From positions 594 to 64,593 of the forward strand of contig JAZREL010000076.1 in the NCBI GenBank assembly GCA_045660785.1: a DNA stretch of 64,000 nucleotides, read 5' to 3'. Below the pieces are notes generated by a model. That model was not told where the DNA came from. It was given only the letters and a program-made list of their open reading frames with translations, and made no database searches. This document shows, one piece after another, positions 19,103 through 60,276 of this stretch (the first letter of the stretch is position 1; every line of letters begins with the position of its first letter). Position numbers and translations under genes: made by a program. Source of the DNA: Eubacteriales bacterium (GTDB lineage: Bacteria; Bacillota; Clostridia; Oscillospirales; CAG-272).

Positions 19103-21319
19103 TTAAAGCTGATCAGGGTCAATGTAGTCAGGGTTGGTTGCAAAGATTTCGTATTCTGAAATCTTGTGTGTTCTTGCATCGTTAGTCCACTTAAGTGACA
19201 AAACTGTGATAACAATCTTTTGCACCTTAATGGGCTGTTGATCCTCAATTGCTTCGAAAACTACAATCTGCTCGCCCTCGGGCTGTCCTGACGTATTGGC
19301 AACAAAGTCTTCGTTTCTGAATACCTCATTTCCGTCAGCGTCGTAGAATACGTGGGATGAGATTGTCCAGTTACCCATTGCGTAACCGTAAACAAGCTGA
19401 ACTTCCATTTCTTCATTAAGTATAATTGTTAAGGATTGACCTTCTGTTGCGAACCATTCGCCCTTATTGTCGCTGTAAATACCGCCTGTTTTCTTAACAC
19501 CGTCAAATAGCGCAGTGGCATATTCCGATCTTTCCGTTGCATAAACCTCGGAAATATTATCAAGTGTTACAAGCTTAGTTGGCTCGTTGTCACCAACTGC
19601 CCATCTTGCATAAACGGTAATATCGCCCGAAAGACCGTCAGTTGTCTTAATTCTTTCTGTCTTCGCCTCGTCCTTGTACCAAGCGATAACGGAGTATTCA
19701 CCTGCATAAGCAGTAACAAACTCAACAGGGTTTACAATGTCGTAGTAAGTTGGGTTGTTGTTTGCAACTACGTAGTTTTCAACCAAATCACCGTAAACGT
19801 AGTTGATTGTGTAGTTTGCAAGTGTAAACTTAGCGTAAGCAACAATGTCTGAAGGATTTTCAGGGTCAATTACTATCTCTGAAATTGGATTTTCCCAAAG
19901 TCCTTCGTAAGGATGGCTTGTGAACCAACCGCCAAATTCGTAGCCGAACTTTGAAAGGGTAGGAAGCACGTATGTGCCTCTGTCGTTAATTGTGTATGAT
20001 GTGATAGCGTCAGATGGCATTGACTCGCCCTCTGTTGCGTATGTAATCTTGTATATAATAAGTGTTGTACGTGCTTCAAGAGTAAGTGAACCCTCGTTTT
20101 CACCTGGAACAAGTGCCTCAAGCTTTGTGTCTGTGCCTTTGATGTACCAACCTGTAAATGCGTAGCCCGTTGTTGAAACGGTAGGAGCAATAAAGGTAAA
20201 TTCTGTTTCAACGGTGTATTCAGAGATGTTGTCATCGCTGTTTGTAAGACCGATAGGCAATTCATAAGTAATCTTGAATGGCAAAATCTTAAATGAGGCA
20301 TAAACTGTAACGTCTTCCTCTGTGCCAAGTGGAATCTTTTCAAAAGGAACTGTAAGCTCCTCGTCCATAAACCAACCAAGGAAGTCGTAGCCGTCGCGTA
20401 TAGGTGTGGAAAGGACTACCTCATCCTCAACGTTAAAGCTTGTTGGGTTGTTGTTTGTGGCATTTCCCATATTAACGTAATTGATGTTGTATCTTACAAG
20501 CTCAAAGTTAGCAACAAGAGTAATGTCACCGAGTAAATTCTTTGTGCTTTCAATCTTTTCGCCGTTAACTGTCCATCCCTCAAAGGTGTAGCCCTCTTTG
20601 GATGGGTCAGCAAATGTCACAACTGACTCAATAGTGTAGGAGTCGGGGTTGGTCTCTGCGTTTGTGCCGCCGTTCAACTCATAGGTGATGGAGTAGTTGG
20701 CAGGAGCCCAAACCGCGTAAAGAGAATTGTACTTGTTAATTCCCATTGTAAAGTCAGCGCCGTCAGCGTAAACCACCTCGCCGCCCATCTTTGTTGCCCA
20801 ACCAAGAAAATCGTAGCCCGTTTTAACGAGTGTGCAAGCGTTAAGCGCTACTGTTGTGTCAGAAGGGATAACAACGGGGTCCATTGTGTTTTCCGCACCG
20901 TTTGGAATGAATGCAAGATTGTTGTTGTTTGGCTTCCAATCAGCAACTATTGTCATATCTGTTGTAATCGCACCGGGTACCCATGATTTGCCCTCGCAAA
21001 GCCAGCCCTTGAATTCGTAACCTGTTTTTGCAGGATTACGTGGGATTCTTCTTACAACGTCGTTGTATTTAACAACCTCGATTACGTCCTCTGTGCCGTT
21101 ATTAAGAACGAAAACAACAGTACACTCCGTTGGTGTAACCGGTTTTTGGTCCTCTGTATCTGTGCTTGTGTCAGAGCTTGTGTCTGTATTTGTGCTTGTG
21201 TCTGCGTTTGTATTTGTGTTGGTGCTTGTGTCGGTATTATCGCCGCCGCAGGAAACAACAAAAATCGCTACAAGAACAAGAAGCACGCAAACAAGCACGC
21301 TTAATAATTTTTTGTTCAT
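19103..21319 (-). CDS. Cell-surface lipoprotein with Listeria-Bacteroides (Flg_new) repeats and a C-terminal beta-sandwich (discoidin-like) domain
   Basis: Signal peptide plus lipobox (VVSCGG), a T/D/N/S-rich linker, at least 5 repeats bearing GY(E/D/T/A)F.GW, and 738 aa in total. Confidence 0.8.
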   Translation of the reverse strand: MNKKLLSVLVCVLLVLVAIFVVSCGGDNTDTSTNTNTNADTSTNTDTSSDTSTDTEDQKPVTPTECTVVFVLNNGTEDVIEVVKYNDVVRRIPRNPAKTGYEFKGWLCEGKSWVPGAITTDMTIVADWKPNNNNLAFIPNGAENTMDPVVIPSDTTVALNACTLVKTGYDFLGWATKMGGEVVYADGADFTMGINKYNSLYAVWAPANYSITYELNGGTNAETNPDSYTIESVVTFADPSKEGYTFEGWTVNGEKIESTKNLLGDITLVANFELVRYNINYVNMGNATNNNPTSFNVEDEVVLSTPIRDGYDFLGWFMDEELTVPFEKIPLGTEEDVTVYASFKILPFKITYELPIGLTNSDDNISEYTVETEFTFIAPTVSTTGYAFTGWYIKGTDTKLEALVPGENEGSLTLEARTTLIIYKITYATEGESMPSDAITSYTINDRGTYVLPTLSKFGYEFGGWFTSHPYEGLWENPISEIVIDPENPSDIVAYAKFTLANYTINYVYGDLVENYVVANNNPTYYDIVNPVEFVTAYAGEYSVIAWYKDEAKTERIKTTDGLSGDITVYARWAVGDNEPTKLVTLDNISEVYATERSEYATALFDGVKKTGGIYSDNKGEWFATEGQSLTIILNEEMEVQLVYGYAMGNWTISSHVFYDADGNEVFRNEDFVANTSGQPEGEQIVVFEAIEDQQPIKVQKIVITVLSLKWTNDARTHKISEYEIFATNPDYIDPDQL

Positions 21320-21424: not shown

Positions 21425-21653
21425 GAAATTTGTGCAAAATGCACAATACAAGCGGTGCTTGTAAATGAATTGCGCAAACGCATGAATTGAAGCAGAGCTT
21501 CATGAATTGTCACAAAGCGACATGAATTGCGCCTTTGGTGCATAAATTGAGGCAATACCGCATTGAAGCATCATATGGCGTAGCCAATTCATAATGTGTT
21601 AACGTCAATTTATTAAAATACAGTTTTCAATTTATGTGATTTATCACAATTCA
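21425..21653. repeat. Micro-hairpin array, family 1, locus A (about 11 units; orientation flips at ~21570)
   Basis: CATGAATTG or CATAAATTG recurs at 21481, 21501, 21521 and 21541, an exact 20-nt period. CAATTCAT or CAATTTAT (the reverse complement) recurs at 21585, 21606, 21628 and 21647. The spacers are short palindromes closed by TG...CA. Confidence 0.85.
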
Positions 21654-26163: not shown

Positions 26164-26661
26164 ATGGTCATTTTGGGGATAGACCCGGGCTTTGCCATTG
26201 TCGGTTGGGGTGTTTTGGAAAGCGTCAAGGGCAAATTCCGCGTGCTTGGCTACGGCTCCATTCAAACCAAGGCAGGCACACCAATTGAGGAGCGCCTTTC
26301 ACAGATTTTCGACGGTATGAACACAATAATCGATAAATATAAGCCCGATGCTATGGCAATTGAGGAGCTTTTTTGGAACACGAACCAAAAAACGGGTATC
26401 TGTGTTGCCGAGGCGCGCGGCACGATTTTAGTTGCGGCACATAAAAAGGGTCTTCAAATCGCGGAATATACACCGCTTCAGGTTAAGCAGTCTGTCGTTG
26501 GCTACGGCAGGGCGGAGAAAAAGCAGGTTATAACAATGGTTACAACGCTTCTTAACTTACCTAAGCCACCAAAGCCCGACGATACAGCCGATGCACTTGC
26601 ACTTGCAATTTGTCACGGCCACGCAAGCTCAAACGTACTTGGAAAATACTTTAAAATGTGA
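26164..26661 (+). CDS. ruvC: Crossover junction endodeoxyribonuclease RuvC
   Basis: 165 aa. The ILGIDPG catalytic Asp, the EE..W motif and a C-terminal DDTADALALAICH motif are present. Confidence 0.95.
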   Translation: MVILGIDPGFAIVGWGVLESVKGKFRVLGYGSIQTKAGTPIEERLSQIFDGMNTIIDKYKPDAMAIEELFWNTNQKTGICVAEARGTILVAAHKKGLQIAEYTPLQVKQSVVGYGRAEKKQVITMVTTLLNLPKPPKPDDTADALALAICHGHASSNVLGKYFKM

Positions 26662-26668
26662 GGAAATT

Positions 26669-27547
26669 ATGTATTTAGCTAATGATTGGAAGGATTACGA
26701 GCTTCTTGACACCTCAGACGGTGAGCGTCTTGAGCGTTGGGGAAAATATATTCTTATTCGTCCCGACCCACAGGTAATTTGGAAGGGAAAAAGGGAGCAT
26801 AAGCTTTGGAGCCGTGCTGACGGAATTTACCGCCGTTCAAAGAGTGGCGGTGGCGCGTGGATTAAAAACGACGTGCCCGAAAAATGGACAATCACCTACA
26901 AGGATATGGTCTTTAACCTAAAGCCGATGGGCTTTAAGCACACAGGTCTTTTCCCTGAGCAGGCGGCAAACTGGGATTGGTTTAGCGAGCTTATTAAGGA
27001 AAGACGTGCCCAAGGTAAAGAGGTTAAGGTTCTAAACCTTTTTGCATACACGGGTGGCGCGACGGTTGCCGCAGCTAAAGCAGGCGCTTCGGTTGTGCAC
27101 GTTGACGCTTCAAAGGGTATGGTTCAATGCGCGAAGGAGAATATGGCATCAAGCGGACTTGAAAACGCACCTGTGCGCTACATAGTTGACGATTGCCGCA
27201 AGTTTGTTGAGCGCGAAATCCGCCGTGGAAACAAATACGACGGAATTATTATGGACCCGCCGTCCTACGGCAGGGGCCCGGGTGGCGAGGTTTGGAAGCT
27301 TGAGGATGCAGTTTGCGACTTTGTAAATCTTTGCGAAAAGCTCATCTCAGATGACCCACTTTTTATGCTTATAAATTCATATACAACAGGTCTTAGCGCG
27401 CTTACAATGGGCTACGTATTAAACGTAGAGGTTGTTAAAAAGCACGGCGGCAGGGCAGAAACTGCCGAGGTTGCCTTGCCTGTTACCGAAACCAAGGGCT
27501 TTTTGCCCTGCGGCGCGAGTGCGCGTTGGGTTGCGGACAAGAAATAA
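26669..27547 (+). CDS. Class I SAM-dependent methyltransferase (RlmI C-terminal-domain-like)
   Basis: 292 aa. LNLFAYTGGATVAAA SAM-binding motif and a DPPSYGRG motif. I set the start at ATG 26669 behind a GAGGA RBS; the tracked 26591 start overlaps ruvC. Confidence 0.85.
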   Translation: MYLANDWKDYELLDTSDGERLERWGKYILIRPDPQVIWKGKREHKLWSRADGIYRRSKSGGGAWIKNDVPEKWTITYKDMVFNLKPMGFKHTGLFPEQAANWDWFSELIKERRAQGKEVKVLNLFAYTGGATVAAAKAGASVVHVDASKGMVQCAKENMASSGLENAPVRYIVDDCRKFVEREIRRGNKYDGIIMDPPSYGRGPGGEVWKLEDAVCDFVNLCEKLISDDPLFMLINSYTTGLSALTMGYVLNVEVVKKHGGRAETAEVALPVTETKGFLPCGASARWVADKK

Positions 27548-27689
27548 GCACCTTGCGGTGCGTGAATTGATGCGACGCATCATAAATTGCAACTCTGTTG
27601 CATGAATTGTTTCTGTGAAACATGAATTGTGCTCCGCACATAAATTGCAACCTTGTTGCATGAATTGTCCTTTGGACATTTTATAATTG
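27548..27689 (+). repeat. Micro-hairpin array, family 1, locus B (7 units, all the same orientation)
   Basis: (C/G)(A/G)T(G/A)AATTG recurs at 27561, 27581, 27601, 27621, 27639 and 27659. Every spacer is a 3-4-bp palindrome with a 3-nt loop, closed by TG...CA. Confidence 0.9.
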
Positions 27690-27700
27690 TAGGAGAAAAA

Positions 27701-28564
27701 ATGAATCCATTAATTAAACTTGAAAACGTTTCCTATAAATATCCCGATAATGACAACGTTGAAAATCGCTTTGCGCTTGAAAACCTTTCGCTTGAAATAA
27801 ACGAGGGAGAGTTTGTTGCGCTTCTCGGTCACAACGGCTCGGGAAAATCAACTGCGGCAAAGCTTATAAATATGATTCTTTCGCCCGACAGTGGCAATAT
27901 TTATATTGACGGAAGGTTGATTTCCGACAAGAAAATGAAGGAAAGCGATATTTACGAAATAAGAAAAAACGTTGGTATGGTTTTCCAAAATCCCGACAAC
28001 CAAATTGTTGCAACCGTTGTCGAGGAGGACGTTGCCTTCGGCCCTGAAAACCTTGGGCTTGACCCCGAGGAAATAAGAAAAAGAGTAGATGAGGCGCTTG
28101 AAATCGTCGGTATGCAATCATATGCGCGCCACGCGCCGCACCGTCTTTCGGGCGGACAAAAGCAAAGGGTTGCAATTGCTGGAATTATCGCAATGAAGCC
28201 GCGTTGCATCATCTTTGACGAATCAACCGCTATGCTTGACCCTCTTGGCAGAAAAGAGGTAATGAACACAATTTTAAAGCTCAATAAGGAAGAAAAAATC
28301 ACCGTTGTCTTAATTACTCACTATATGAACGAGGCAATAGAGGCAGACAGAGTTGTGGTTATGCGAAATGGCGAAAAGTACCTTGAGGGCACACCGTCCG
28401 AGGTCTTTTCAAAGCCCGAAAAGCTCACACGTGCGGGGCTTGAGGTGCCGCAGTCAATTGAGCTTATAAATGCTCTGAATAAGGAGCTTGGCACAAAAAT
28501 CCCCTTAGGAGTGTACGATTTAGACACCTGTGCCGACCTTGTTAGCAGGGAACTTTTGAAATAA
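27701..28564 (+). CDS. ecfA: Energy-coupling factor transporter ATPase (EcfA1)
   Basis: GHNGSGKST Walker A, LSGGQKQR signature and IFDEST Walker B. I set the start at ATG 27701 behind an AGGAG RBS. Confidence 0.93.
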   Translation: MNPLIKLENVSYKYPDNDNVENRFALENLSLEINEGEFVALLGHNGSGKSTAAKLINMILSPDSGNIYIDGRLISDKKMKESDIYEIRKNVGMVFQNPDNQIVATVVEEDVAFGPENLGLDPEEIRKRVDEALEIVGMQSYARHAPHRLSGGQKQRVAIAGIIAMKPRCIIFDESTAMLDPLGRKEVMNTILKLNKEEKITVVLITHYMNEAIEADRVVVMRNGEKYLEGTPSEVFSKPEKLTRAGLEVPQSIELINALNKELGTKIPLGVYDLDTCADLVSRELLK

Positions 28565-32754: not shown

Positions 32755-35025
32755 ATGGAAATGTGTACCAGATGCAAAAAAAGACCGGCAACGGTTTATA
32801 TTATGAAGCTCGAAAACAACGTGCAAAAGCAAGAGGGACTTTGCCTCGTTTGCGCTAAGGAGCTCGGCATTAAGCCCGTCAACGATATGATGACAAAGAT
32901 GGGCATTACCGAGGAGGAGCTTGAAAATATGGAAAAGATGTTCGCTGATATGCTTCCCGTTGCAAATGACGGCGAGGACGGCGACGAGGACTCTCCCACA
33001 ATTGATTTTTCCAAAATAATGAAAAATATGGGAATGGGCGCAGGTGAACAAAAGGACGCAAAGGATAAGGACAAGGGCAAGAAAAAGGACAACCGCAAGC
33101 ACCTTTCCACCTTCTGCACAAACCTCAATCAGCGCGCACTAAACGGCAAGCTTGACAGAATTGTAGGTAGATCACGTGAGCTTGAAAGAGTAATTCAAAT
33201 TCTAAGCCGCCGCCAAAAGAACAACCCCTGCTTAATAGGTGAGCCGGGCGTTGGTAAAACCGCAATTGCCGAGGCACTCGCACAAAGAATTGTCGAGGGC
33301 AACGTGCCACATAAGCTTAAAAAATGCGAAATATACTTGGTTGACTTAACCGCACTTGTTGCAGGCACTCAGTTCAGAGGTCAGTTTGAGGCAAGAATTA
33401 ACGGACTTCTTAAGGAGGTTAAGGAGGCAGGCAATATTATTCTCGTTATCGACGAAATCCACAATATTGTCGGCACAGGCAACTCCGCGGGCAGTATGAA
33501 CGCCGCAAATATTTTAAAGCCCGCACTTTCACGCGGCGAAATTCAGGTTATCGGCGCAACAACCTTGAAGGAATACCGCAAATATATTGAGAAGGATGCC
33601 GCACTTGAGCGCCGCTTCCAGCCCGTTAAGGTTGAGGAGCCGTGTATTGACGAGTGTATCGAAATGATAAAGGGCATCAGGCACTACTACGAAATTTATC
33701 ACGGCGTTAAAATCTCCGATGAAATGGCAAAAAGCGCAGTTGTAATGAGTGAGCGCTATATCACCGACAGATTTTTGCCCGACAAGGCAATCGACTTAAT
33801 CGACGAGGCGTGCTCGCACATTGTTTTGCACGCGCCACACATAAACGAGCGCCACAGAGTTATCGAGCGCTTGGCAGAGGTTGACACAAAAACCGAGGCG
33901 CTGAATGCAAAAATTGCAGAGGGCGGCAAGGAGCCAAGCGAAAACGAATATAAGCAGCTTGCCGAGCTTAAGGCGGAGCGTTCAATGCTTCTTATAGACA
34001 AGGAAAAGCTTGACAAGGAATGTGAAAATACCGTTATGACCAAGCAGGACCTTGCAGGCGTTATCGAAATTTGGACGGGCATCCCCGCAAGCAATATTTC
34101 CGAGGTTGAATTTGAAATGCTTGCTGCGCTTGAGGACAAGATAAAATCTCGTATTGTCGGTCAGGACGAGGCGGTAAAATCGCTCTCTGCGGCAATCAGA
34201 AGAAACCGTGCAGGCGTCAGCATTAAAAAACGTCCCGCATCCTTCATTTTCGCAGGTCCGACGGGCGTTGGTAAAACCGAGCTTGTTAAAACGCTCGCAA
34301 ATGAGCTTTTCAATACTCCCGATTCGCTTATTCGCCTTGATATGACAGAGTTTATGGAGAAGCACTCCGTGTCTAAAATCATCGGCTCTCCTCCCGGCTA
34401 CGTTGGCTACGACGAGGCAGGACAGCTCACCGAAAAGATAAGACGCTCACCGTACTCCGTTGTGCTCTTCGACGAAATAGAGAAGGCGCATCCCGACGTA
34501 TTAAACATTCTTCTTCAAATTCTTGACGAGGGTAAAATTTCCGACTCTCAGGGAAGAACGATAAATTTTGAAAACACGGTTATTATAATGACGACTAACG
34601 CGGGCGCAACCTTAACCTCATCCCAGGCGGGCTTCGGCTCAAGCTCACACGAGGTTGCCAAGGATAAAACAGAGAAGGCGCTTTCCTCGTTCCTTCGTCC
34701 CGAGTTTATCAACCGTATCGCCGAAATTATCACCTTCCGCTCACTTGAAGAAAGCGACTTTGTAAAGATTGCCAAGATTATGCTTAGCGATATGCAAACA
34801 GCACTTGGTGAAAGAAGCATCCGCTTCACCTTTACTGACGAGGTGTGCGAGTTTATTGCAAAGGAATCCTTCAGCAAAAAATTCGGTGCAAGAAATATGC
34901 GCAGATATATTCAAACTCAAATCGAGGATAAGCTTGCCCACGCAATTATCTTTGAGATAAAGGGCAACATCATCGGCGCAAGCGTTGACGTAAAGGACGG
35001 GGCACTCGTTGTTGACTGCATTTAG
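32755..35025 (+). CDS. Clp/Hsp100 two-AAA+ ATPase with an N-terminal CxxC...CxxC zinc ribbon (ClpE-like)
   Basis: 756 aa. CTRCKK...CLVCAKELG at the N-terminus, two Walker A boxes ([18 protein letters not shown]), and no Clp_N repeat domain. Confidence 0.88.
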
Positions 35026-35120
35026 CACGTCAACACGTGAATGAATTGCAACCATAAGGTTTCATGAAGCAGCACTATGTAATGAAATTACAATTCATGG
35101 TTTGCAAGCATCAATTCATT
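35026..35120. repeat. Micro-hairpin array, family 1, locus C (shorter, partly degenerate, orientation flips)
   Basis: AATGAATTG at 35040, degenerate CATGAAGC at 35063 and AATGAAATT at 35081, then CAATTCATG at 35091 and CAATTCATT at 35112. The cacgt-caac-acgtg and TGcaacc-ataa-ggtttCA hairpins are visible. Confidence 0.7.
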
Positions 35121-35128
35121 AAAAATTT

Positions 35129-35170
35129 GAGCAAGGACAGGGGAATTTAACCCTTTTCCTTGCTCTTTTT
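35129..35170 (+). terminator. Intrinsic terminator after the ClpE-like gene and array C
   Basis: A long gagcaagga...tccttgctc hairpin plus a T5 run. Confidence 0.8.
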
Positions 35171-35244
35171 ACTTACGACAACGGGCGGGCTTCTCGTTTT
35201 GCCTCAAATTTTTAAAATTTTTTTACTTTAGTTTGATAAAGTAC

Positions 35245-35273
35245 TTGAAATTATATTTTTCGTGTGATATTAT
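35245..35273 (+). promoter_or_regulatory. Sigma-A promoter (TTGAAA-17-TATTAT, extended -10 TG) for proS
   Basis: Read directly from the sequence. No T-box leader lies between it and the ATG. Confidence 0.6.
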
Positions 35274-35328
35274 AATCGTATATTATTTTTACAACTAAAT
35301 TTTACTATGATACTTTATGAGGTTAAAA

Positions 35329-36765
35329 ATGGCTAACGATAAGAAAATGGTAGAGCAAATTACGTCAATGGACGTAGATTTTGCAAAATGGTACACCGAC
35401 GTAGTTAAAAAGGCAGACTTAATTGACTATTCAAGCGTAAAGGGCTGTATGATTATCCGTCCTTACGGTTATGCAATTTGGGAAAATATTCAAAAGCTTC
35501 TCGATGCAAGATTTAAAAAAACAGGCGTAGAAAACATCTATATGCCTATGTTCATTCCCGAGTCACTTCTTCAAAAGGAAAAGGACCACGTTGAGGGCTT
35601 TGCACCCGAGGTTGCTTGGGTTACACACGGCGGCACTGAGCCACTTACTGAGCGTCTTTGTGTTCGTCCAACGTCAGAAACTCTTTTCTGTGAGCATTAT
35701 GCAAACATCATTCGCTCATACAGAGATTTGCCAAAGCTTTACAACCAATGGTGCAGCGTTGTAAGATGGGAAAAAACAACCCGTCCGTTCCTCCGCTCAC
35801 GTGAGTTCCTTTGGCAAGAGGGTCACACAATGCACGCAACAGCAGAGGATGCAGAAAACGAAACGCTTCAAATGCTTAACGTATATGCAGACTTCTTTGA
35901 AAAGGATCTCGGCATCCCTGTTTTGAAGGGTAGAAAGACCGACAAGGAAAAGTTTGCAGGCGCAAATGCAACCTACACCGTTGAAGCTCTTATGCACGAC
36001 GGTAAGGCACTTCAGGGCGGCACAAGCCATAACTTCGGTGACGGCTTCGCTAAAGCGTTCGATATTCAGTATCTTGATAAGGACAATACCTTGAAATACT
36101 GTCACCAAACCTCTTGGGGCGTGTCAACAAGAATTATCGGTGCGATAATTATGACCCACGGCGATGATAACGGTCTTGTTTTACCGCCAAGCGTTGCTCC
36201 AATTCAGGTTGTTGTTATTCCTTGTGCTCAGCATAAGCCGGGCGTAATCGAAAAGGCAACGGAGGTTATGGAAAGAGTAAACAATTTTGCAAGAGCTAAG
36301 ATTGATATTTCCGATAACTCACCGGGATGGAAGTACGCCGAGTATGAAATGAAGGGCGTTCCGCTCCGTCTTGAAATCGGCCCACGCGACATTGAAAATA
36401 ACCAATGCGTTTTGGTTCGCCGTGACTCAAGAGAAAAGATTTTCGTTTCTCTTGACGAGCTTGAAACAAAAATCCCCGAAATTCTTTCCGACATCACCGC
36501 AGGACTTTACAACAAAGCCGCTGAAAACAGAAAAAATCGCACCTATACGGAAACCGAGCTTGACAGCTTTATCAAGACAGCTTCCGAAAAGTCGGGCTAC
36601 ATCAAGGCACATTGGTGCGGAGAGCTTGAATGTGAGCTTAAGCTTAAGGAGCTTGCAGACGTTACCTCACGTTGTATGCCGCTTGACGAGCAGGGCACAA
36701 AGGGCAAATGCGTATGCTGCGGCAAGGAAACCGACAAGCTCGTATACTGGGGCAAGGCATATTAA
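35329..36765 (+). CDS. proS: Proline--tRNA ligase (archaeal/eukaryote-like type without an editing insertion)
   Basis: 478 aa with class II motifs and a C-terminal zinc-binding-type extension (CxxC...YWGKAY). The start ATG 35329 lies behind a GAGG RBS. Confidence 0.94.
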
Positions 36766-36822
36766 TCCGCTTTAGCCGCAAATTACTTAATTTAGTTTAT
36801 ATTATTTTGGAGGAAACCAATT

Positions 36823-38172
36823 ATGTTTAAAAATCAATATCTTAATGAGCTCATGGAAAGAGTAGTAAAAAGAAACCAAAATGAGCCCGAATTTCACCAA
36901 ACAGTAGAAGAGGTTCTTGCTTCAATCGAGCCCGTTATCGAAGCTCGTCCCGAGTACATCACAAGCGGTGTTCTTGAAAGAATGGTAGAGCCCGAAAGAA
37001 TTATCAAGTTCAGAGTTCCGTGGGTTGACGACAGCGGCAAGGTTCAAGTTAACCGTGGCTTCAGAATTCAGTTCAACAGCGCAATAGGCCCATACAAGGG
37101 AGGACTTCGCTTCCACCCATCAGTTTACGAGGGAATTATTAAGTTCCTCGGCTTCGAGCAAACCTTTAAGAACAGCTTGACCTCGCTCCCAATGGGCGGC
37201 GGTAAGGGCGGCTCCGACTTTGACCCACAGGGCAAGAGCGATGCAGAGGTTATGCGCTTCTGCCAAAGCTTTATGACAGAGCTTTCACGTCACATCGGCG
37301 CAGACCTTGACGTTCCTGCAGGCGATATCGGCGTTGGCGCAAGAGAGGTTGGCTATATGTTCGGTCAATACAAGAGACTCCGTAACGAGTTTACAGGCGT
37401 TTTGACAGGTAAGGGCATCTCCTACGGCGGCTCACTTATCCGTCCTGAGGCAACCGGCTACGGCGCAGTTTACTACACAGACAATATGCTTAACTACTTC
37501 AAGGATTCAATCGCTGGCAAGACCTTCGTTGTTTCCGGCTTCGGTAACGTTGCTTGGGGCGCAGTTAAGAAGATTAACGAGCTTGGCGGTAAGGTTGTTA
37601 CAATCTCAGGTCCTGACGGATATATCTACGACGAAAACGGCATCTCAACCGAGGAAAAAATCAACTTTATGCTCGAAATGCGTGCTTCCTGCCGCAATAA
37701 GGTTCAAGATTATGCTGACAAGTTCGGCGTTCCTTTCTTCGCAGGAAAGAAGCCATGGGGCGTAAAGGCAGACATTTTAATGCCTTGTGCAACACAAAAC
37801 GAGGTTGGCATCAAGGAAGCTGAAGAAATCGTAGCAAACGGCGTTAAGTACTACGTTGAGGTTTCAAATATGCCAACTACAAACGAGGCAGTTGCATACC
37901 TCAAATCAAACGGCGTAATAGTTGCTCCTTCAAAGGCAGTTAACGCAGGCGGCGTTGCAGTTTCAGGCCTTGAAATGTCACAAAACTCAATGCGTTACAG
38001 CTGGAGCGCTGAGGAGGTTGACCAAAAGCTCAAGGGTATTATGAAGAATATTTTTGAAAACTCAATCAAGGCAGCAAACAAGTACGGTCTTGGTGATGCC
38101 CTCGTTGCAGGTGCAAACATCGCGGGCTTTATCAAGGTTGCTGTCGCTATGCTCGCTCAAGGCGTGGTATAA
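36823..38172 (+). CDS. gdhA: NADP-specific glutamate dehydrogenase
   Basis: 449 aa. The LPMGGGKGG active-site motif and the GFGNVAWG dinucleotide fold are present. Confidence 0.96.
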   Translation: MFKNQYLNELMERVVKRNQNEPEFHQTVEEVLASIEPVIEARPEYITSGVLERMVEPERIIKFRVPWVDDSGKVQVNRGFRIQFNSAIGPYKGGLRFHPSVYEGIIKFLGFEQTFKNSLTSLPMGGGKGGSDFDPQGKSDAEVMRFCQSFMTELSRHIGADLDVPAGDIGVGAREVGYMFGQYKRLRNEFTGVLTGKGISYGGSLIRPEATGYGAVYYTDNMLNYFKDSIAGKTFVVSGFGNVAWGAVKKINELGGKVVTISGPDGYIYDENGISTEEKINFMLEMRASCRNKVQDYADKFGVPFFAGKKPWGVKADILMPCATQNEVGIKEAEEIVANGVKYYVEVSNMPTTNEAVAYLKSNGVIVAPSKAVNAGGVAVSGLEMSQNSMRYSWSAEEVDQKLKGIMKNIFENSIKAANKYGLGDALVAGANIAGFIKVAVAMLAQGVV

Positions 38173-38182
38173 TAACAATACT

Positions 38183-38228
38183 AAAAATGCAAAAAAATGC
38201 GACCCTGTGTCGCATTTTTGCATTTTTT
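38183..38228 (+). terminator. Intrinsic terminator after gdhA
   Basis: A long nested hairpin (atgcaaaaa-atgcgac / gtcgcat-ttttgcat) plus a T-run. Confidence 0.8.
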
Positions 38229-38326
38229 GGGGTAAAAAACGCGCACAAAAAATGGAGCTTGTGGAAACGTTAACCGAAAATTCACACACATATTATAAAT
38301 ATATACAAAATTTTCTCAATATTATA

Positions 38327-38355
38327 TTGATTTTTGTGCAAGCGTATGATATAAT
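38327..38355 (+). promoter_or_regulatory. Sigma-A promoter (TTGATT-17-TATAAT, extended -10 TG)
   Basis: Read directly from the sequence, upstream of the solute-binding protein gene. Confidence 0.6.
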
Positions 38356-38393
38356 ATTTCCAGCGAATAATGTATTCTTATAGGAGGTAAGTA

Positions 38394-40034
38394 ATGAAAA
38401 AGAAGATTTTCGCATTATTGCTTGCGGTTTTAATGCTCGTTCCTTTTGTAGTTGCTTGCGGTGGTGACACAAACACAAACACCGAAACAAATACAAATTC
38501 TGAAACGAACACAGACACCGGTTCAGGTGACACAAATGATACTGAGACCGGCGATACAACAACCGATACAAGCATACCTACCGACACTTCAACAGGCGGA
38601 ACAACCGTTGAAAAGGTAGACACAGAAAAAGACAAATCCCAAAAGTGGAGCGGTCAAACTCTTGACTGTATCGCAGGCGGCTGGGGCGGCGACGCTTACG
38701 GCAAGGCAGGCGCGTGGTCACAACCTGAGCTTTACGTAAAGGAAGCATATCAGGAGGGTAACCTCGGTCAAATTGTTAACACAGCAGTTTGGGCAAGACA
38801 AAACCAAATCAAGAGCATTTACGGTGTAACAATGGTATGGCACCAAGCAAAGAGCAATACAACTATGCAAAACGAGCTTCAAACAGGTCTTGAGGCAGGT
38901 GCTGCAAAGTTCCATATTGCTACTCCACGTGCATACGAAACACAGTCACTTATCGCTGCAGAAACAGTTTATGACCTTGCAAACAGCAAGTACATTGACT
39001 TAACAAAGTCATACTACAACCAAGCGGCAGTAGATTCATTCTCAGTTTACGGTCACACATTCTTCGTTGCAGGTGACTTCAGCTACCTTGACGAATACAC
39101 ATCATTCGTTATGTTCTACAACCAAGCTATTTCTGCAAAGTTCCCAACCTTTGGTAACCTCTATAACACAGTTAGAAATGGTAGATGGACTCTTGCTGAG
39201 CTTTCAAAGAAGGGCGCACTCGTTGGCTCTGACGATAACGGCGAAACCGGCTATCAAGATACAGATACATACGGCTTTGGTACAACAGGTATGGCTGGCT
39301 TCTTCCAAGCAAGCGGCATCAACCAGGTTTCTGTTGATAAGTCCTCAGGCGACCCAAGCCAATACAAGTATCACATCACACTTAACGATCCTAACGTTGC
39401 TGACCTTGTTACACAGCTTGCAAACATCAAGTCCTCTACATGGGCAAGAACAAGCTGGGACGGCGGATACGGCGCAATGCTCCAATCCTTCACAGGCGGC
39501 AAGCTTCTTTTCTATGAAGAAGTAGTACAAAAGATTTTCGAGTTCCCTGAGCAGTCTGAAACCTTCAAGGTTGCTGTTCTTCCTTTGCCTAAGCAAAACA
39601 CAGACCAAGAAAGCTATTACACACCATTCGCTTCACAAGCAACTGTAATGTGCATTCCTAAGGCATCACTCGACAGAGAAATGTCTGAATACTTCTTCGA
39701 CGTTCTTTCATGGACAGGTCAAAAATTCGTTATGGCTGCATTCTATGAAGAAATGGAATCACGTCTTTACGATGACGGCAACACATCAAGAGAGGATGCT
39801 CTTGAAATGCTCACAGACTACGTGCTTAAGAGCCTTACATATGACCAAGGTTATATGCACGAGGCAATGGGTATGAAGTTTATGTCATACGTACAAAGCG
39901 AAACAATCGCAGGTGCAACAGCTTCCTCATCACCTTTCACAACCCTTTACTCTGAGGCGTTTAACGATGCAAACAAGATGTTGAACGATGAAAAGACAGG
40001 TTGGAACACCAACGCAAAGAATTATAGGGACTAA
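38394..40034 (+). CDS. Extracellular solute-binding lipoprotein (large carbohydrate ABC SBP type), orphan
   Basis: 546 aa. Lipobox VVACGG, a T/N/D-rich linker, then an SBP-like body. No permease genes are adjacent. Confidence 0.75.
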   Translation: MKKKIFALLLAVLMLVPFVVACGGDTNTNTETNTNSETNTDTGSGDTNDTETGDTTTDTSIPTDTSTGGTTVEKVDTEKDKSQKWSGQTLDCIAGGWGGDAYGKAGAWSQPELYVKEAYQEGNLGQIVNTAVWARQNQIKSIYGVTMVWHQAKSNTTMQNELQTGLEAGAAKFHIATPRAYETQSLIAAETVYDLANSKYIDLTKSYYNQAAVDSFSVYGHTFFVAGDFSYLDEYTSFVMFYNQAISAKFPTFGNLYNTVRNGRWTLAELSKKGALVGSDDNGETGYQDTDTYGFGTTGMAGFFQASGINQVSVDKSSGDPSQYKYHITLNDPNVADLVTQLANIKSSTWARTSWDGGYGAMLQSFTGGKLLFYEEVVQKIFEFPEQSETFKVAVLPLPKQNTDQESYYTPFASQATVMCIPKASLDREMSEYFFDVLSWTGQKFVMAAFYEEMESRLYDDGNTSREDALEMLTDYVLKSLTYDQGYMHEAMGMKFMSYVQSETIAGATASSSPFTTLYSEAFNDANKMLNDEKTGWNTNAKNYRD

Positions 40035-40048
40035 TTTCCCATATCTAT

Positions 40049-40080
40049 AAAAGACAGCACCTCGGTGCTGTCTTTTTCTT
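40049..40080 (+). terminator. Intrinsic terminator
   Basis: A 9-bp stem agacagcac/gtgctgtct plus a T-run. Confidence 0.85.
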
Positions 40081-40157
40081 TAAAATAAAACTTCTTTGTT
40101 GAAAAATCTCTACTTATATGTTATACTTTATATATACAAAATACAGTGAGGAATATT

Positions 40158-42341
40158 ATGGCAATTTTAGTAAACGGTGATAAAATTTTCACCATAAATA
40201 CCAAAAACACTACGTACCAGATGCACGTGGATGAAAATGGCATTCTTTTGCACTCATATTACGGCACAAAAATGGAGTACAGCGACCTTTCCTACGCAGG
40301 ATATAAGAAGGGATGGGGCGCATCCTTTTCGGGAAACATCCGCGATACAAGCTATTCGCACAACCATAGTAATGAGGAGCTTTCCGTTTTCGGCTTGGGC
40401 GATTTCCGCTTAACTGCCTTAGCGCTTGTAAATCACGATGGCTCAACGGGATGTGAGCCGATTTATCATAGCCACAAAATAGTCAAAGGAAAGTATGGAA
40501 TTAAGGGCTTGCCCGCGTTTTACGGCGACGAGGGCGAAACACTTGTAATCACCTTGAAGGACAAGGCATACGATATTTATTTCCATATGTACTACGGCGT
40601 TTTGCCCGAATACGACCTTATTACCAAGGCACTCGTTATAGAAAACAAAACTGAGGCGCAAATTAAGCTGAAAAAGGCACTTTCATTAACTCTTGATATG
40701 CCAACGGGCACTTACGATATGCTTCACTTTTACGGTGCGCATATGCGTGAAAGACAGCTTGAAAGGACGAGAATTTCACACCTTGCCTCAAGCGTGACAA
40801 GCGTGCGCGGCGCGTCAGGCCATACACAAAACCCATTCGTTATAGTTTGCGATAAGGATGCGGGCGAAACACACGGTAGGGCTTACGGCATTGCACTTGT
40901 GTATAGCGGAAACTTCGTTATTTCCTGCGAGGTTGAACAGCACGAAAGAACAAGAGTAGTGGCAGGCATCAACCCTGAGGGATTTGAATATACGCTTGAT
41001 GCGGGCGATACCTTTGAAACACCCGAGGTTGCACTCGTTTACAGTGGCGAGGGCTTCGGCAAAATTTCAAACAACTTTCACGATGCAATAAGAAATAACC
41101 TTTGCCGCGGCAAATTCAAAAACGCGCGCCGCCCCGTGCTTATCAACAACTGGGAAGCAACGTATTTCGATTTTAATGCGGATAAATTGGTTGCAATGGC
41201 AAAGGATGCCGCCGCTATCGGCGTTGAGCTTCTCGTTATGGACGACGGATGGTTCGGACACAGAGATGATGACAAAACCTCACTCGGCGATTGGTTTGTA
41301 AATGAGAAAAAGCTCCAAGGCACACTGCCCGAGCTTGTTAAGCGTGTAAACGATGAGGGTCTTAAATTCGGCATTTGGTTCGAGCCCGAGTGCATTTCCG
41401 AGGACAGTGAGCTGTTTAGAAGCCACCCCGACTACCGCTTTGCAATTCCAAACCGTGACCCGCAGCTCTCACGTAACCAATTCGTGCTTGATATGACCCG
41501 CAAAGAGGTGCGCGACAATATTTACGACCAAATGGTGAAGGTTCTAAATAGTGCCAATATCGCATACGTAAAGTGGGATTTCAATAGACACTTGAGCGAT
41601 TTATACAGTGCCGCAATACCAAGTGAGCGCCAAGGCGAAATATATCATAGATATATGCTCGGCGTTTACGAGCTTCTTGAAAGAGTGACAAGCACGTTCC
41701 CCGATATTTTATTTGAAAGCTGCTCAGGCGGTGGCGGACGCTTCGACTGCGGTATGCTTTACTATATGCCACAGGTTTGGACAAGCGATAACTCCGATGC
41801 TATCGACCGATTAAAAATTCAATACGGCACGTCCTTTGCATACCCTGTAAGAACAATGGGCGCACACGTTTCAGTATGCCCGAACCACGGTAATGCAAGA
41901 GTAACTCCGCTAAGTACCCGTGGAAACGTTGCATATTTCGGCACCTACGGCTTAGAGCTTGATATTACAAAGATGACAGACGAAGAGAAGCTTGAAATTA
42001 AGCGCCAAATCGTTGAATTTAAGAAGTATTATGACTTAATTCAGTTCGGTGATTATTATAGACTTATCTCACCGTTCACCCCTGAGGAAAGCCGCTACTG
42101 CGCTTGGCAGGTTGTTTCCAAGGACGGAAATGAAGCACTTGCTTGCACCGTTGCATATGAATCAAAATGCACCGTCGCACCTGAGCTTTTGCGCCTTCGC
42201 GGTCTGAACCCCGAAAAGCTTTATAGAGTAAACGGAAGCGAGGAAACCTACCTCGGCGCAGCGCTTATGAACATCGGCTTCTGGCTCGATTACGACCACG
42301 TTTCGTATCCGTCAAGATTGTATCACATCACACTCGCATAA
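40158..42341 (+). CDS. Alpha-galactosidase, GH36
   Basis: 727 aa. LLVMDDGWF and KWDFNR motifs plus the CSGGGGRFD catalytic region. The start ATG 40158 lies behind a GAGG RBS. Confidence 0.93.
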   Translation: MAILVNGDKIFTINTKNTTYQMHVDENGILLHSYYGTKMEYSDLSYAGYKKGWGASFSGNIRDTSYSHNHSNEELSVFGLGDFRLTALALVNHDGSTGCEPIYHSHKIVKGKYGIKGLPAFYGDEGETLVITLKDKAYDIYFHMYYGVLPEYDLITKALVIENKTEAQIKLKKALSLTLDMPTGTYDMLHFYGAHMRERQLERTRISHLASSVTSVRGASGHTQNPFVIVCDKDAGETHGRAYGIALVYSGNFVISCEVEQHERTRVVAGINPEGFEYTLDAGDTFETPEVALVYSGEGFGKISNNFHDAIRNNLCRGKFKNARRPVLINNWEATYFDFNADKLVAMAKDAAAIGVELLVMDDGWFGHRDDDKTSLGDWFVNEKKLQGTLPELVKRVNDEGLKFGIWFEPECISEDSELFRSHPDYRFAIPNRDPQLSRNQFVLDMTRKEVRDNIYDQMVKVLNSANIAYVKWDFNRHLSDLYSAAIPSERQGEIYHRYMLGVYELLERVTSTFPDILFESCSGGGGRFDCGMLYYMPQVWTSDNSDAIDRLKIQYGTSFAYPVRTMGAHVSVCPNHGNARVTPLSTRGNVAYFGTYGLELDITKMTDEEKLEIKRQIVEFKKYYDLIQFGDYYRLISPFTPEESRYCAWQVVSKDGNEALACTVAYESKCTVAPELLRLRGLNPEKLYRVNGSEETYLGAALMNIGFWLDYDHVSYPSRLYHITLA

Positions 42342-59256: not shown

Positions 59257-60276
59257 TTATTCGTAAAAATCTGGAATTTCAACCGCGGAATATCTTGACC
59301 AACCAAGCGCAGGGCGGAAGCCCCAAATTGAATCTCTTGCTTGTCTGTTTGACTTTTCGCTCTTGTCAAAAAGCGTGAGGTTGCTTTCCCATTCAAGGAT
59401 TATCGGCAGGTCGTTTTTCATTGACGAGTCGAGCAAGCGATAGTTAATCTTGTCGCCGTTTTGAACCTCGGAATACAAGCAAACGCGAATTCCCCAACAA
59501 AGGTCAAATGCAGCCGCCTCAACCACCTTGATGCTTCTTGGAATTGCAATAGTGTAGTAGTAGCTTTCGTTTTTATATTGGCTGTTTCCAAACGCCACGC
59601 CAAAATCAGTAAACGCGTTTGTCTTAATTCCAACAACGCTCTTGCCTTGGTATTCGCGCGGCATGTAAACAATCTTCGTTGCATCAACGGGTCTTACAAA
59701 GTCAACACAGTAAAGCTCACCGTTTTCCTCTACGTAAACAAAGCCGTCAGCGTCCGTAATTGTGGTAGGCGCAGGTGGCTCCTCGTTTCCTTCGTCACCG
59801 TCGCCCTCGCCGCCGTTGTCACCGCTATTATCGCCACTGTTGTCACCGCCCTCGTTGCCTGAGCCACCTTGGTTGCCGCTTCCGCCTTGGTCGTCGTCCT
59901 CATTGTCTGAGCCACCTTGGTTCTCGTTTCCACCTTGGTCGTCGTCCTCATTGCCTGAGCCGCCTTGGTTCTCGTTTCCGCCTTGGTCGTCGTCCTCATT
60001 GCCTGAGCCACCTTGGTTCTCGTTTCCGCCTTGGTCGCTGTCCTCATTACCCGAGCCACCCTCGGTGTCAGTGTCTGTTTCGGTGTCGGTAACATCGCCT
60101 GCACCCGTGTCGGTGTCCTTATTTGTGTCGTCCGTGTCGATGTTTGTGTCTGTTTCGTCCGTTTGTGTGCCTTCGCCCGTGTCAATGTAAATGCCACCGC
60201 CCTCGCAAGCGGAGAAGCAAAGCGCCAAAAGAACGGTCAGTGCCAAAAGAATACACAAAAATATATTTCTTTTCAT
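59257..60276 (-). CDS. Lipoprotein with an acidic repeat linker and a C-terminal BspA-type leucine-rich-repeat-like domain
   Basis: Lipobox FSACEGG, a T/D-rich stretch, (GGSGNEDDDQGGNENQ)n repeats, then an IPRSIKVVEAAAF-type LRR segment. The start ATG 60276 lies behind a GAGGA RBS. Confidence 0.75.
   Translation of the reverse strand: MKRNIFLCILLALTVLLALCFSACEGGGIYIDTGEGTQTDETDTNIDTDDTNKDTDTGAGDVTDTETDTDTEGGSGNEDSDQGGNENQGGSGNEDDDQGGNENQGGSGNEDDDQGGNENQGGSDNEDDDQGGSGNQGGSGNEGGDNSGDNSGDNGGEGDGDEGNEEPPAPTTITDADGFVYVEENGELYCVDFVRPVDATKIVYMPREYQGKSVVGIKTNAFTDFGVAFGNSQYKNESYYYTIAIPRSIKVVEAAAFDLCWGIRVCLYSEVQNGDKINYRLLDSSMKNDLPIILEWESNLTLFDKSEKSNRQARDSIWGFRPALGWSRYSAVEIPDFYE
59885..60076. repeat. 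In-frame 48-bp tandem repeat, about 4 copies
   Basis: ccttggtcg(t/c)(c/t)gtcctcatt starts at 59885, 59933, 59981 and 60029, an exact 48-nt period. It encodes the 16-aa G/N/E/D/Q repeat. Confidence 0.9.

Follow-up and report, generated by a model that had tools for sequence, protein, structure and literature searches.

A tandem mini-hairpin array upstream of ecfA as a probable member of a dispersed repeat family in gut and rumen Clostridia

The array between the methyltransferase gene and ecfA

The DNA analysed here, a stretch of 64,000 nucleotides (nt) from a Eubacteriales bacterium (GenBank assembly GCA_045660785.1, contig JAZREL010000076.1), is referred to as the window, and all window coordinates refer to this stretch. 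It carries an array of tandem mini-hairpins in the gap between a gene for an S-adenosylmethionine (SAM)-dependent methyltransferase and ecfA, in a neighbourhood for which Pfam confirmed RuvC, SAM methyltransferase, EcfA, EcfA', EcfT and TruA. The methyltransferase gene upstream occupies positions 26669–27547 of the + strand (open reading frame (ORF) 26591–27547; PF10672 Methyltrans_SAM, E 2.4e-15) and ends with the stop codon TAA at 27545–27547. Downstream of the array, the ribosome-binding site AGGAG (27692–27696) precedes the ATG of ecfA at 27701 (site and gene together 27692–28564, +; Pfam ABC_tran), a start with which the related proteins agree, aligning from residue 1–4.

The first-pass annotation had described seven tandem mini-hairpins with T(G/A)AAT linkers at 27548–27689, and a re-reading of 27400–27820 bore this out. 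On the + strand, the array opens with hairpin 0, GCACC-ttgc-GGTGC (27548–27561) plus a G, a degenerate first unit at 27548–27562 that lacks the TG..CA frame of the others. It is followed by unit 1, TGAAT + TGATGC-gac-GCATCA (27563–27582), unit 2, TAAAT + TGCAAC-tct-GTTGCA (27583–27602), unit 3, TGAAT + TGTTTC-tgt-GAAACA (27603–27622), the 18-nt unit 4, TGAAT + TGTGC-tcc-GCACA (27623–27640), unit 5, TAAAT + TGCAAC-ctt-GTTGCA (27641–27660), a near-duplicate of unit 2 with 93% identity, and unit 6, TGAAT + TGTCC-ttt-GGACA (27661–27678), again of 18 nt. Linkers start at 27563, 27583, 27603, 27623, 27641 and 27661, i.e. at a spacing of 20, 20, 20, 18 and 20 nt, and all 22 of the 22 variable stem pairs are Watson-Crick, as had been stated. 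The claim of a regular array held for the units and not for the two edges: the first linker is preceded by CG instead of CA, and positions 27679–27689 (+) form a degenerate terminal (eighth) linker, TTTTATAATTG, which its sequence and the 10–30 nt spacers of related loci identify as the right edge of the inserted array.

The pattern AATTGN{7,13}CATRAATTG occurs 11 times in the window, compared with a mean of 0.01 over 100 shuffles. Folding with DNA parameters yielded seven separate hairpins on either strand of the array (z-scores −4.3 and −4.5), while RNA parameters gave z-scores of −2.6 and −3.6 for the two strands and an alternative pairing of unit 2 with unit 5. The gap contains no convincing promoter and no real terminator, and a promoter-like site lies upstream of ruvC; co-transcription of the array in the TGAAT sense is therefore likely. 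The transcription together with ecfA that had been proposed is thus plausible, as judged from these two features and from the spacers of only 10–30 nt in relatives. Two kinds of promoter within the array were considered and rejected. Read from the sequence, the units combine TTG and TAAATT at a spacing of about 10 or about 30 nt, unlike sigma-70 geometry, and the TATAAT at 27683–27688 is too near to the ATG to leave room for a ribosome-binding site. Unit 6 with its T-rich tail TTTTATAATT was flagged as weakly terminator-like.

A dispersed repeat family

The array in the ecfA gap is probably one copy of a high-copy, dispersed and fast-evolving repeat family of gut and rumen Clostridia, the unit of which joins the 5-nt linker T(G/A)AAT to a variable mini-hairpin with a TG...CA frame. 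When one genome per GTDB species was scanned with a three-unit pattern, at least 119 stretches were retrieved, mostly from metagenome-assembled genomes (MAGs) of gut and rumen Clostridia (Acutalibacteraceae, Oscillospiraceae, Ruminococcus, Christensenellales and Ca. Scatosoma). A small number, among them the low-diversity tandem repeat L004, come from other phyla and either differ in appearance or may have been mis-binned. The scanned loci hold 191 arrays of 2–11 units, with 481 interior units and 336 distinct hairpins among them. The TG..CA frame is present in 428 of the 481 units, and the unit period is mostly 16–22 nt, with start-to-start spacings of 15–25 nt and 16, 18, 19 and 20 nt as common values.

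Complementarity is the most consistent property of these units. They are paired down to a loop of at most 5 nt in 367 of 481 cases, compared with 28.7 (maximum 42) after shuffling of the interiors, so that copies elsewhere in genomes are self-complementary far above the shuffled expectation. In a set of 127 distinct 20-nt units drawn from many genomes, pairing extended to 95.8% of the cells as against 67.5% in shuffled sets, the covariation score was 0.681 as against 0.151 and was reached by none of 500 shuffles, and slid controls were paired to 16–54%. These values support the view of the first-pass annotation that selection, or a generating mechanism, acts on pairing and not on sequence. Its preference for a single-stranded form over a duplex operator gained support as well, given that the unit length varies between 16 and 22 nt while the linker is constant.

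Three arrays are present in the window, and roughly 34 beyond the seeded ones are estimated for about 815 kb of DNA from other genomes. Where the two neighbouring genes are co-directional, 27 of the single-orientation arrays lie in sense to them and 21 in antisense. No replication-strand bias was detected, with a positive GC skew on the TGAAT strand in 30 of 58 loci, and terminators near the 144 arrays inspected are rare and unbiased. Array orientation is thus independent of gene context and of GC skew. Convergent gene pairs are over-represented among the gaps with arrays (38, as opposed to 15 divergent pairs). The layout is non-random: 104 elements have a single orientation, 40 run forward-then-reverse and 7 reverse-then-forward.

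The second array of the window lies between ruvB and a surface-repeat gene. Its forward arm (21425–21560, +) consists of two leading hairpins and five T(G/A)AAT units, some of them imperfect and one with a G-T pair; its reverse arm (21585–21653, −), with four CAATT(C/T)A linkers and degenerate hairpins, is located directly downstream of the − strand terminator-like hairpin behind ruvB. The third array separates the stop codon of a ClpB-like gene from a terminator-like hairpin. It comprises one forward unit, TGAAT + TGCAACC-ataa-GGTTTCA (35042–35064, +), which begins 17 nt past that stop codon, and a reverse arm of two units with ATTCA linkers (35078–35118, −), which the terminator-like hairpin follows. 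An Eubacteriales MAG (L041) is 81–90% identical to window positions 34796–42341 and carries at the same site, 3' of the ClpB-like gene, six forward units that represent a duplicated three-unit block, whereas the window has one forward and two reverse units; no hairpin is common to both. Array content therefore turns over fast at this orthologous site. Pairing is kept while the stem sequences diverge, and arrays change by duplication and replacement of unit blocks.

Other repeats were noticed in the window. At 21153–21238, overlapping tandem repeats of 12, 18, 24 and 30 nt, rich in TGT and GCT, are part of the 5' region of a gene at 19103–21319 (−) with Listeria-Bacteroides repeat domains. A tandem repeat at 59850–60101 with a 48-nt period (4.4 copies, 91% match, 96-nt super-period) is probably a repetitive coding region.

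To place the copy in the ecfA gap, EcfA relatives with 53–60% amino-acid identity to the window protein were compared at 80 loci from a metagenome scan; exact-protein look-ups for EcfA and for the methyltransferase had given no match. The methyltransferase gene lies directly upstream of ecfA in 61 of the 80 relatives, usually with 10–30 nt from stop to start as opposed to 153 nt in the window, and a TGAAT array is present at none of the 80 loci. A few relatives possess one or two other hairpins in this spacer. The short, array-less spacers of the relatives therefore identify the array as an insertion at the methyltransferase-ecfA junction, and a specific role as an ecf sensor is not supported. 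The link to the ecf operon suggested earlier was lost with this comparison of orthologous spacers and with the finding of the same arrays at two other sites of the window and in at least 119 stretches elsewhere, in both orientations relative to genes. In two distant relatives, L133 and L146, the 68-nt gap harbours two GC-rich hairpins joined by ATGAATC, which could be an independent colonisation or a remnant.

A phage origin was considered and rejected, given that only six stretches matched among 2.9 million viral contigs and two of these were false positives. In two viral contigs (L201:5347–5569 and L204:7138–7702), 9- and 18-nt coding repeats rich in the cysteine codons TGC and TGT were found instead of hairpin arrays. 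Three further contigs (L200, 5128 bp; L203; L205) have a GC content of 58–60% and a forward-then-reverse array, and their viral label is doubtful. In L200, arrays occur at no fewer than three sites about 1.5–2.7 kb apart; the local density can thus be very high.

Strand polarity and a small four-helix-bundle gene

The two strands of the units are not equivalent. A single mismatch in the stem interior reads, on the TGAAT strand, as A.C or C.A 23 times and as G.T or T.G 7 times; the wobble pairs therefore fall on the ATTCA strand. Of 241 distinct perfect units, 89 have a TGAAT-strand loop of the type T..C and 7 one of the type G..A; the most frequent loops, together with the pairs that close them, correspond to C(GAA)G, C(GCA)G, C(GTA)G, C(GTTA)G and C(GTCA)G when the ATTCA strand is read. 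Triloops (156) outnumber tetraloops (71). UUCG tetraloops were dismissed as an explanation, since the register, as far as the letters themselves tell, forbids them: CTTCG is a triloop closed by C-G. DNA mini-hairpins of the sequence GCGNAGC/GCGNNAGC are unusually stable and their RNA versions are much less so (Hirao and co-workers; review PMC13037366). Polarity follows the orientation of the linker and neither transcription nor replication, which argues for an element-intrinsic process that uses one strand. Single-stranded DNA is likelier than RNA in this process because the loops obey the C-GNA-G/C-GNNA-G rule of DNA mini-hairpins. Nevertheless, we hold the proposition that the single-stranded form that matters is DNA to be a serious one that falls somewhat short of likely.

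An all-against-all clustering of 787 ORFs around arrays returned as recurrent ORFs only housekeeping families, RumA and a four-helix-bundle protein. The latter is encoded by a small PF05635/TIGR02436 gene, related to PDB 2RLD and Avd-like, which adjoins arrays in nine loci and is present in 0 of 80 control loci. In a search from the protein side, every distinct clostridial context that was examined showed the same order of a promoter-like site, a forward arm, a conserved centre, a reverse arm, a ribosome-binding site and the ATG. Within this leader, 2–4 forward units are followed by the centre ..GCA ATTCA ATTCA YGGAG-[GC-GNA/GNNA-GC]-CGAGA AATCATG and then by the reverse units (L206:830–1000, L209:860–1000, L210:540–700, L214:525–700, L216:560–700, L036:5661–5813 and L091:4000–4800). 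In L091 the gene is situated between the forward and the reverse arm, and in L206 the forward arm occurs again after the gene. Many of these genes reside on contigs of 0.5–2 kb, as would be expected of repeats that break assemblies.

The module of array and gene located 3' of rumA is 65–87% identical between species, whereas the rumA 3' ends of the same species are only 52–67% identical and the downstream DNA is unrelated. RumA-like genes whose 3' ends run into an array were recorded in L030, L038, L058, L065, L074, L087, L116 and L216. At this junction, the stop codon of the RumA-type methyltransferase is the TGA of the first TGAAT linker in at least eight species. Furthermore, the final codons of rumA make up a hairpin resembling a unit (e.g. 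TGCCGTTGGCA) in five of the seven genes compared (L038, L058, L065, L074 and L216).

In Bacteroides, the homologues, likewise 2RLD-like, occupy an insertion site either between araD and araA or between the genes for an aminotransferase and a DAHP synthase, and are flanked by inverted heptads, (AATTGAC)x4–5 upstream and (GTCAATT)x4 downstream (L217–L219:535–1035 and L220–L223:560–1060). These heptads have the AATTG core in common with the clostridial linker and form no hairpins. The arrangement suggests that gene-less arrays are derivatives or extra sites of the four-helix-bundle cassette. A causal tie between arrays and cassette is a tentative and rather unlikely proposition. We consider the wider claim unlikely, namely that TGAAT arrays and PF05635/TIGR02436 genes constitute one previously unrecognised cassette system across Clostridia and Bacteroidales. 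In such a system, arrays with the AATTG core would be its cis-acting ends and leader, built of hairpins in Clostridia and of bare AATTGAC heptads in Bacteroides; one strand would work via GNA/GNNA DNA mini-hairpins; and the approximately 100 gene-less arrays per genome, that upstream of ecfA among them, would descend from it as non-autonomous elements or serve it as extra sites. A literature search on the function of TIGR02436 produced nothing relevant, and PF05635-type proteins are numerous, with at least about 8,000 matching proteins per search.

Interpretation and comparison with known systems

The explanation we favour, and regard as probably correct, is a dispersed hairpin-array repeat resembling both repetitive extragenic palindromic (REP) sequences and the Gut-1 RNA, which was inserted and is co-transcribed, exerts at most a generic barrier effect and is maintained via a strand-specific single-stranded form. 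A copy would have been inserted between the stop codon of the methyltransferase gene and the ribosome-binding site of ecfA, and would be carried passively on the ruvC-methyltransferase-ecfA-ecfA'-ecfT-truA transcript. By analogy with REP sequences, the likeliest local effect would be a stable hairpin stack that hinders exonucleases or partly stops RNA polymerase, and this stack may shift the ratio of upstream to downstream gene expression. The hairpins would matter in the single-stranded form of one strand, the ATTCA strand, presumably as DNA rather than RNA. Gene-less arrays are probably orphan derivatives similar to miniature inverted-repeat transposable elements, or extra cis sites, of the small four-helix-bundle cassette. 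Any function of the family is putative; selection on pairing is well supported.

Several observations weigh against this explanation. Neither a recurrent transposase nor an enzyme able to move or copy units was found among the 787 ORFs around arrays, no four-helix-bundle gene is present in the 64-kb window, and the four-helix-bundle proteins have a neutral isoelectric point of 6.3–7.7. No insertion events between close strains and no target-site duplications were observed. The density of about one array per 20–25 kb was extrapolated from 8-kb MAG pieces with approximately one seeded array per locus. With respect to the strand, the polarity statistics come from genomes other than that of the window, and the loops of the ecfA-gap array itself are mostly of the non-GNA type on the − strand (GTC, AGA, ACA, GGA, AAG, AAA). 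Equal counts could result if RNA of the TGAAT strand favoured pyrimidine-rich loops. In addition, the arrays in the four-helix-bundle leaders are clearly transcribed, and a role at the RNA level is possible. Finally, any local effect of the array on ecfA is inferred.

The reading towards which the first-pass annotation leaned, cis-regulation of ecfA-ecfA'-ecfT-truA by an ecf-specific leader or intercistronic RNA (e.g. a riboswitch or an attenuator), draws on the position of the array, which fills the whole spacer in sense orientation to ecfA and stops just before the ribosome-binding site, and on the two hairpins joined by ATGAATC in the same spacer of L133 and L146. It is largely refuted by the distribution, and we consider it very improbable: none of the 80 related loci has an array in spacers that mostly measure 10–30 nt, the identical architecture is found downstream of ruvB and of the ClpB-like gene in the window and beside unrelated genes in more than 100 genomes, and the array offers repeated mini-hairpins only, with no conserved pocket-like structure. 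A riboswitch or another known cis-regulatory RNA was likewise rejected, since no Rfam family other than a sub-threshold Gut-1 match was found and the 80 related ecfA loci are free of the array. An independent small RNA (sRNA) gene of the Gut-1 type would instead produce a multi-site RNA, which could serve as a sponge for a protein recognising the inter-helix linker UGAAU. Gut-1, a candidate sRNA, is indeed the only Rfam similarity, with 28.4 bits here and 28–39 elsewhere and always in TGAAT orientation; the random orientation relative to neighbours fits free-standing genes, and a promoter-like site stands directly before the forward arm in four-helix-bundle loci. However, the ecfA gap lacks a convincing promoter and a real terminator, terminators beside arrays are rare and unbiased, and one array per 20–25 kb is far above the expectation for sRNA genes. 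Given also that the polarity of wobble pairs and loops points to the opposite strand, and that the content is wholly replaced between relatives with 81–90% identical flanks, unlike in a conserved trans-acting RNA, this reading is improbable.

In a duplex-DNA explanation, a protein, possibly the four-helix-bundle protein, would bind the 9-mer CATGAATTG in an iteron- or operator-like array of sites and the palindromes would be incidental spacers. The conservation of this 9-mer next to an otherwise variable unit, the resemblance of forward and reverse arms to multi-site transposon ends or inverted operator arrays, and the contiguous, hairpin-less and duplex-operator-like AATTGAC heptads at the Bacteroides genes are in its favour, but site spacings of 16–22 bp break the helical phasing and the four-helix-bundle proteins are not basic. 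Incidental spacers would moreover not hold 96% Watson-Crick pairing with covariation, nor a strand-specific loop code, and we see little chance for this explanation. A neutral product of replication slippage without selection or a dedicated mechanism is also very improbable and already disfavoured. Unit-block duplications are visible (units 2 and 5 in the window, the three-unit block in L041) and the conserved 9-nt linker offers microhomology, but slippage copies units and would not create 336 different stems that all stay paired; it also leaves the same linker across many families of Clostridia, the excess of forward-then-reverse elements and the polarity of the loops unexplained.

If the repeat explanation is true, structured repeats, approximately one per 20–25 kb, form a REP-like layer in many uncultured Clostridia of gut and rumen, a layer which breaks short-read assemblies, remodels operon spacers and 3' untranslated regions and can supply stop codons. 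Gut-1, an orphan sRNA candidate since 2010, would become one branch of a genome-wide repeat class. The conservation of pairing, loop type and linker without stem sequence would represent a clean natural case of selection on single-strand structure. Furthermore, the link to the four-helix-bundle gene would offer the first testable handle on a very large protein family beyond diversity-generating retroelements (DGRs).

Among known systems, clustered regularly interspaced short palindromic repeats (CRISPR) consist of 23–50 nt repeats with unique spacers of similar size and foreign origin. Such an array was rejected here on account of the period of 16–22 nt, the conserved part of 9 nt and the self-complementarity of the variable part. 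At Rfam gathering thresholds no CRISPR was detected in the window or in 18 array-rich loci, with cas genes not specifically searched, and the sole CRISPR-type match, to CRISPR-DR25 at 21624–21645, is weak (15.7 bits, threshold 36). An iteron or heptad operator was also discarded as a class, as the site spacing is not fixed (15–25 nt from start to start). The GNA/GNNA loops closed by C-G on the ATTCA strand resemble the DNA mini-hairpins introduced above, and the centres of forward-then-reverse elements often contain GCGAAGC, GCGTAGC, GCGCAGC or GCGTTAGC. In contrast to the present family, these mini-hairpins are a structural motif and no genetic element, and their cited occurrences in nature are individual sites at origins of single-strand replication or priming, with no arrays (PMC13037366).

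The intervening sequence (IVS) of 23S rRNA with its S23p (PF05635) ORF resembles the cassette in that a small four-helix-bundle gene is enclosed in a short insert bounded by inverted repeats; the IVS of Coxiella is described as a selfish element (PMC4990558). Array cassettes differ from it in their position between protein-coding genes and not in rRNA, and in bounding repeats that are arrays of short units and not one long stem. PF05635 also resembles the DGR accessory protein Avd (PMC10053308), but neither a reverse transcriptase nor template and variable repeats are located near the cassettes.

With the REP sequences and bacterial interspersed mosaic elements (BIMEs) of Enterobacteria and Pseudomonas, the family has in common apparently abundant intergenic hairpin repeats that are often clustered and are enriched at gene 3' ends and in convergent gaps, locations that differ among relatives, a short conserved single-stranded motif beside the hairpin (GTAG in REP) and, as for REP-associated tyrosine transposases (RAYTs), an associated gene that is itself flanked by repeats. 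In E. coli, a REP array located within an operon partially terminates transcription and stabilises the upstream mRNA (bioRxiv 10.64898/2026.03.23.713779). However, the REP stems of one genome share a conserved sequence, whereas in the present family conservation is limited to the linker and the TG/CA frame, with 336 distinct hairpins in 481 units. BIMEs alternate in orientation, while the present units run head-to-tail and switch only between whole arms. No Y1 (RAYT) transposase is encoded by the 787 ORFs around arrays, and the flanked gene belongs to PF05635, which has no known catalytic activity. A literature search for tandem hairpin arrays in Clostridia and for RAYTs in Firmicutes returned nothing relevant. 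The family thus behaves in a REP/BIME-like manner, yet lacks three defining features, namely the conserved palindrome, the alternating orientation and, as far as the ORFs around arrays show, the RAYT gene.

Among structured RNAs, an Rfam scan of the window at gathering thresholds gave tRNA only, and a permissive scan of the gap one meaningful match, Gut-1 (RF01706), with 28.4 bits at 27539–27613 (+) and a threshold of 50. Other arrays scored 28.3–39.4 bits, and none of 18 array-rich loci reached 50; membership in Gut-1 by Rfam score was therefore rejected, every score lying below the gathering threshold. Separately, an array-carrying contig of a Clostridia MAG has a match to the Whalefall-1 RNA motif (L061:5686–5736, −) of 27.1 bits with a threshold of 37. 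Gut-1 has been described as three tandem variable hairpins with conserved GUGAAAU or GUGAUAU linkers and was classed among the free-standing sRNAs (Weinberg et al. 2010, PMC2864571), with 43 examples, all from human-gut metagenomes, and no function assigned (PMC2864571). The likeness includes at least three tandem hairpins (seven here), variable and covarying stems, a conserved purine-rich linker, C(UUC)G- and C(UGC)G-type loops and the gut origin, and the flanks of the Gut-1 seed alignment show forward and then reverse units (AAUAUCAC). The earlier statement that the architecture is undescribed therefore needs correction, as Gut-1 has the same one, while it stands for the linker family, which the Gut-1 model does not capture: the linker here is (C)AUGAAUUG or (C)AUAAAUUG, with only UGAAxU in common with the GUGAAAU consensus. 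In contrast to Gut-1, the arrays described here contain 2–11 units, in either orientation, beside any gene and at about one per 20–25 kb, and this genome-wide, two-orientation nature of the repeats is new relative to the Gut-1 description.

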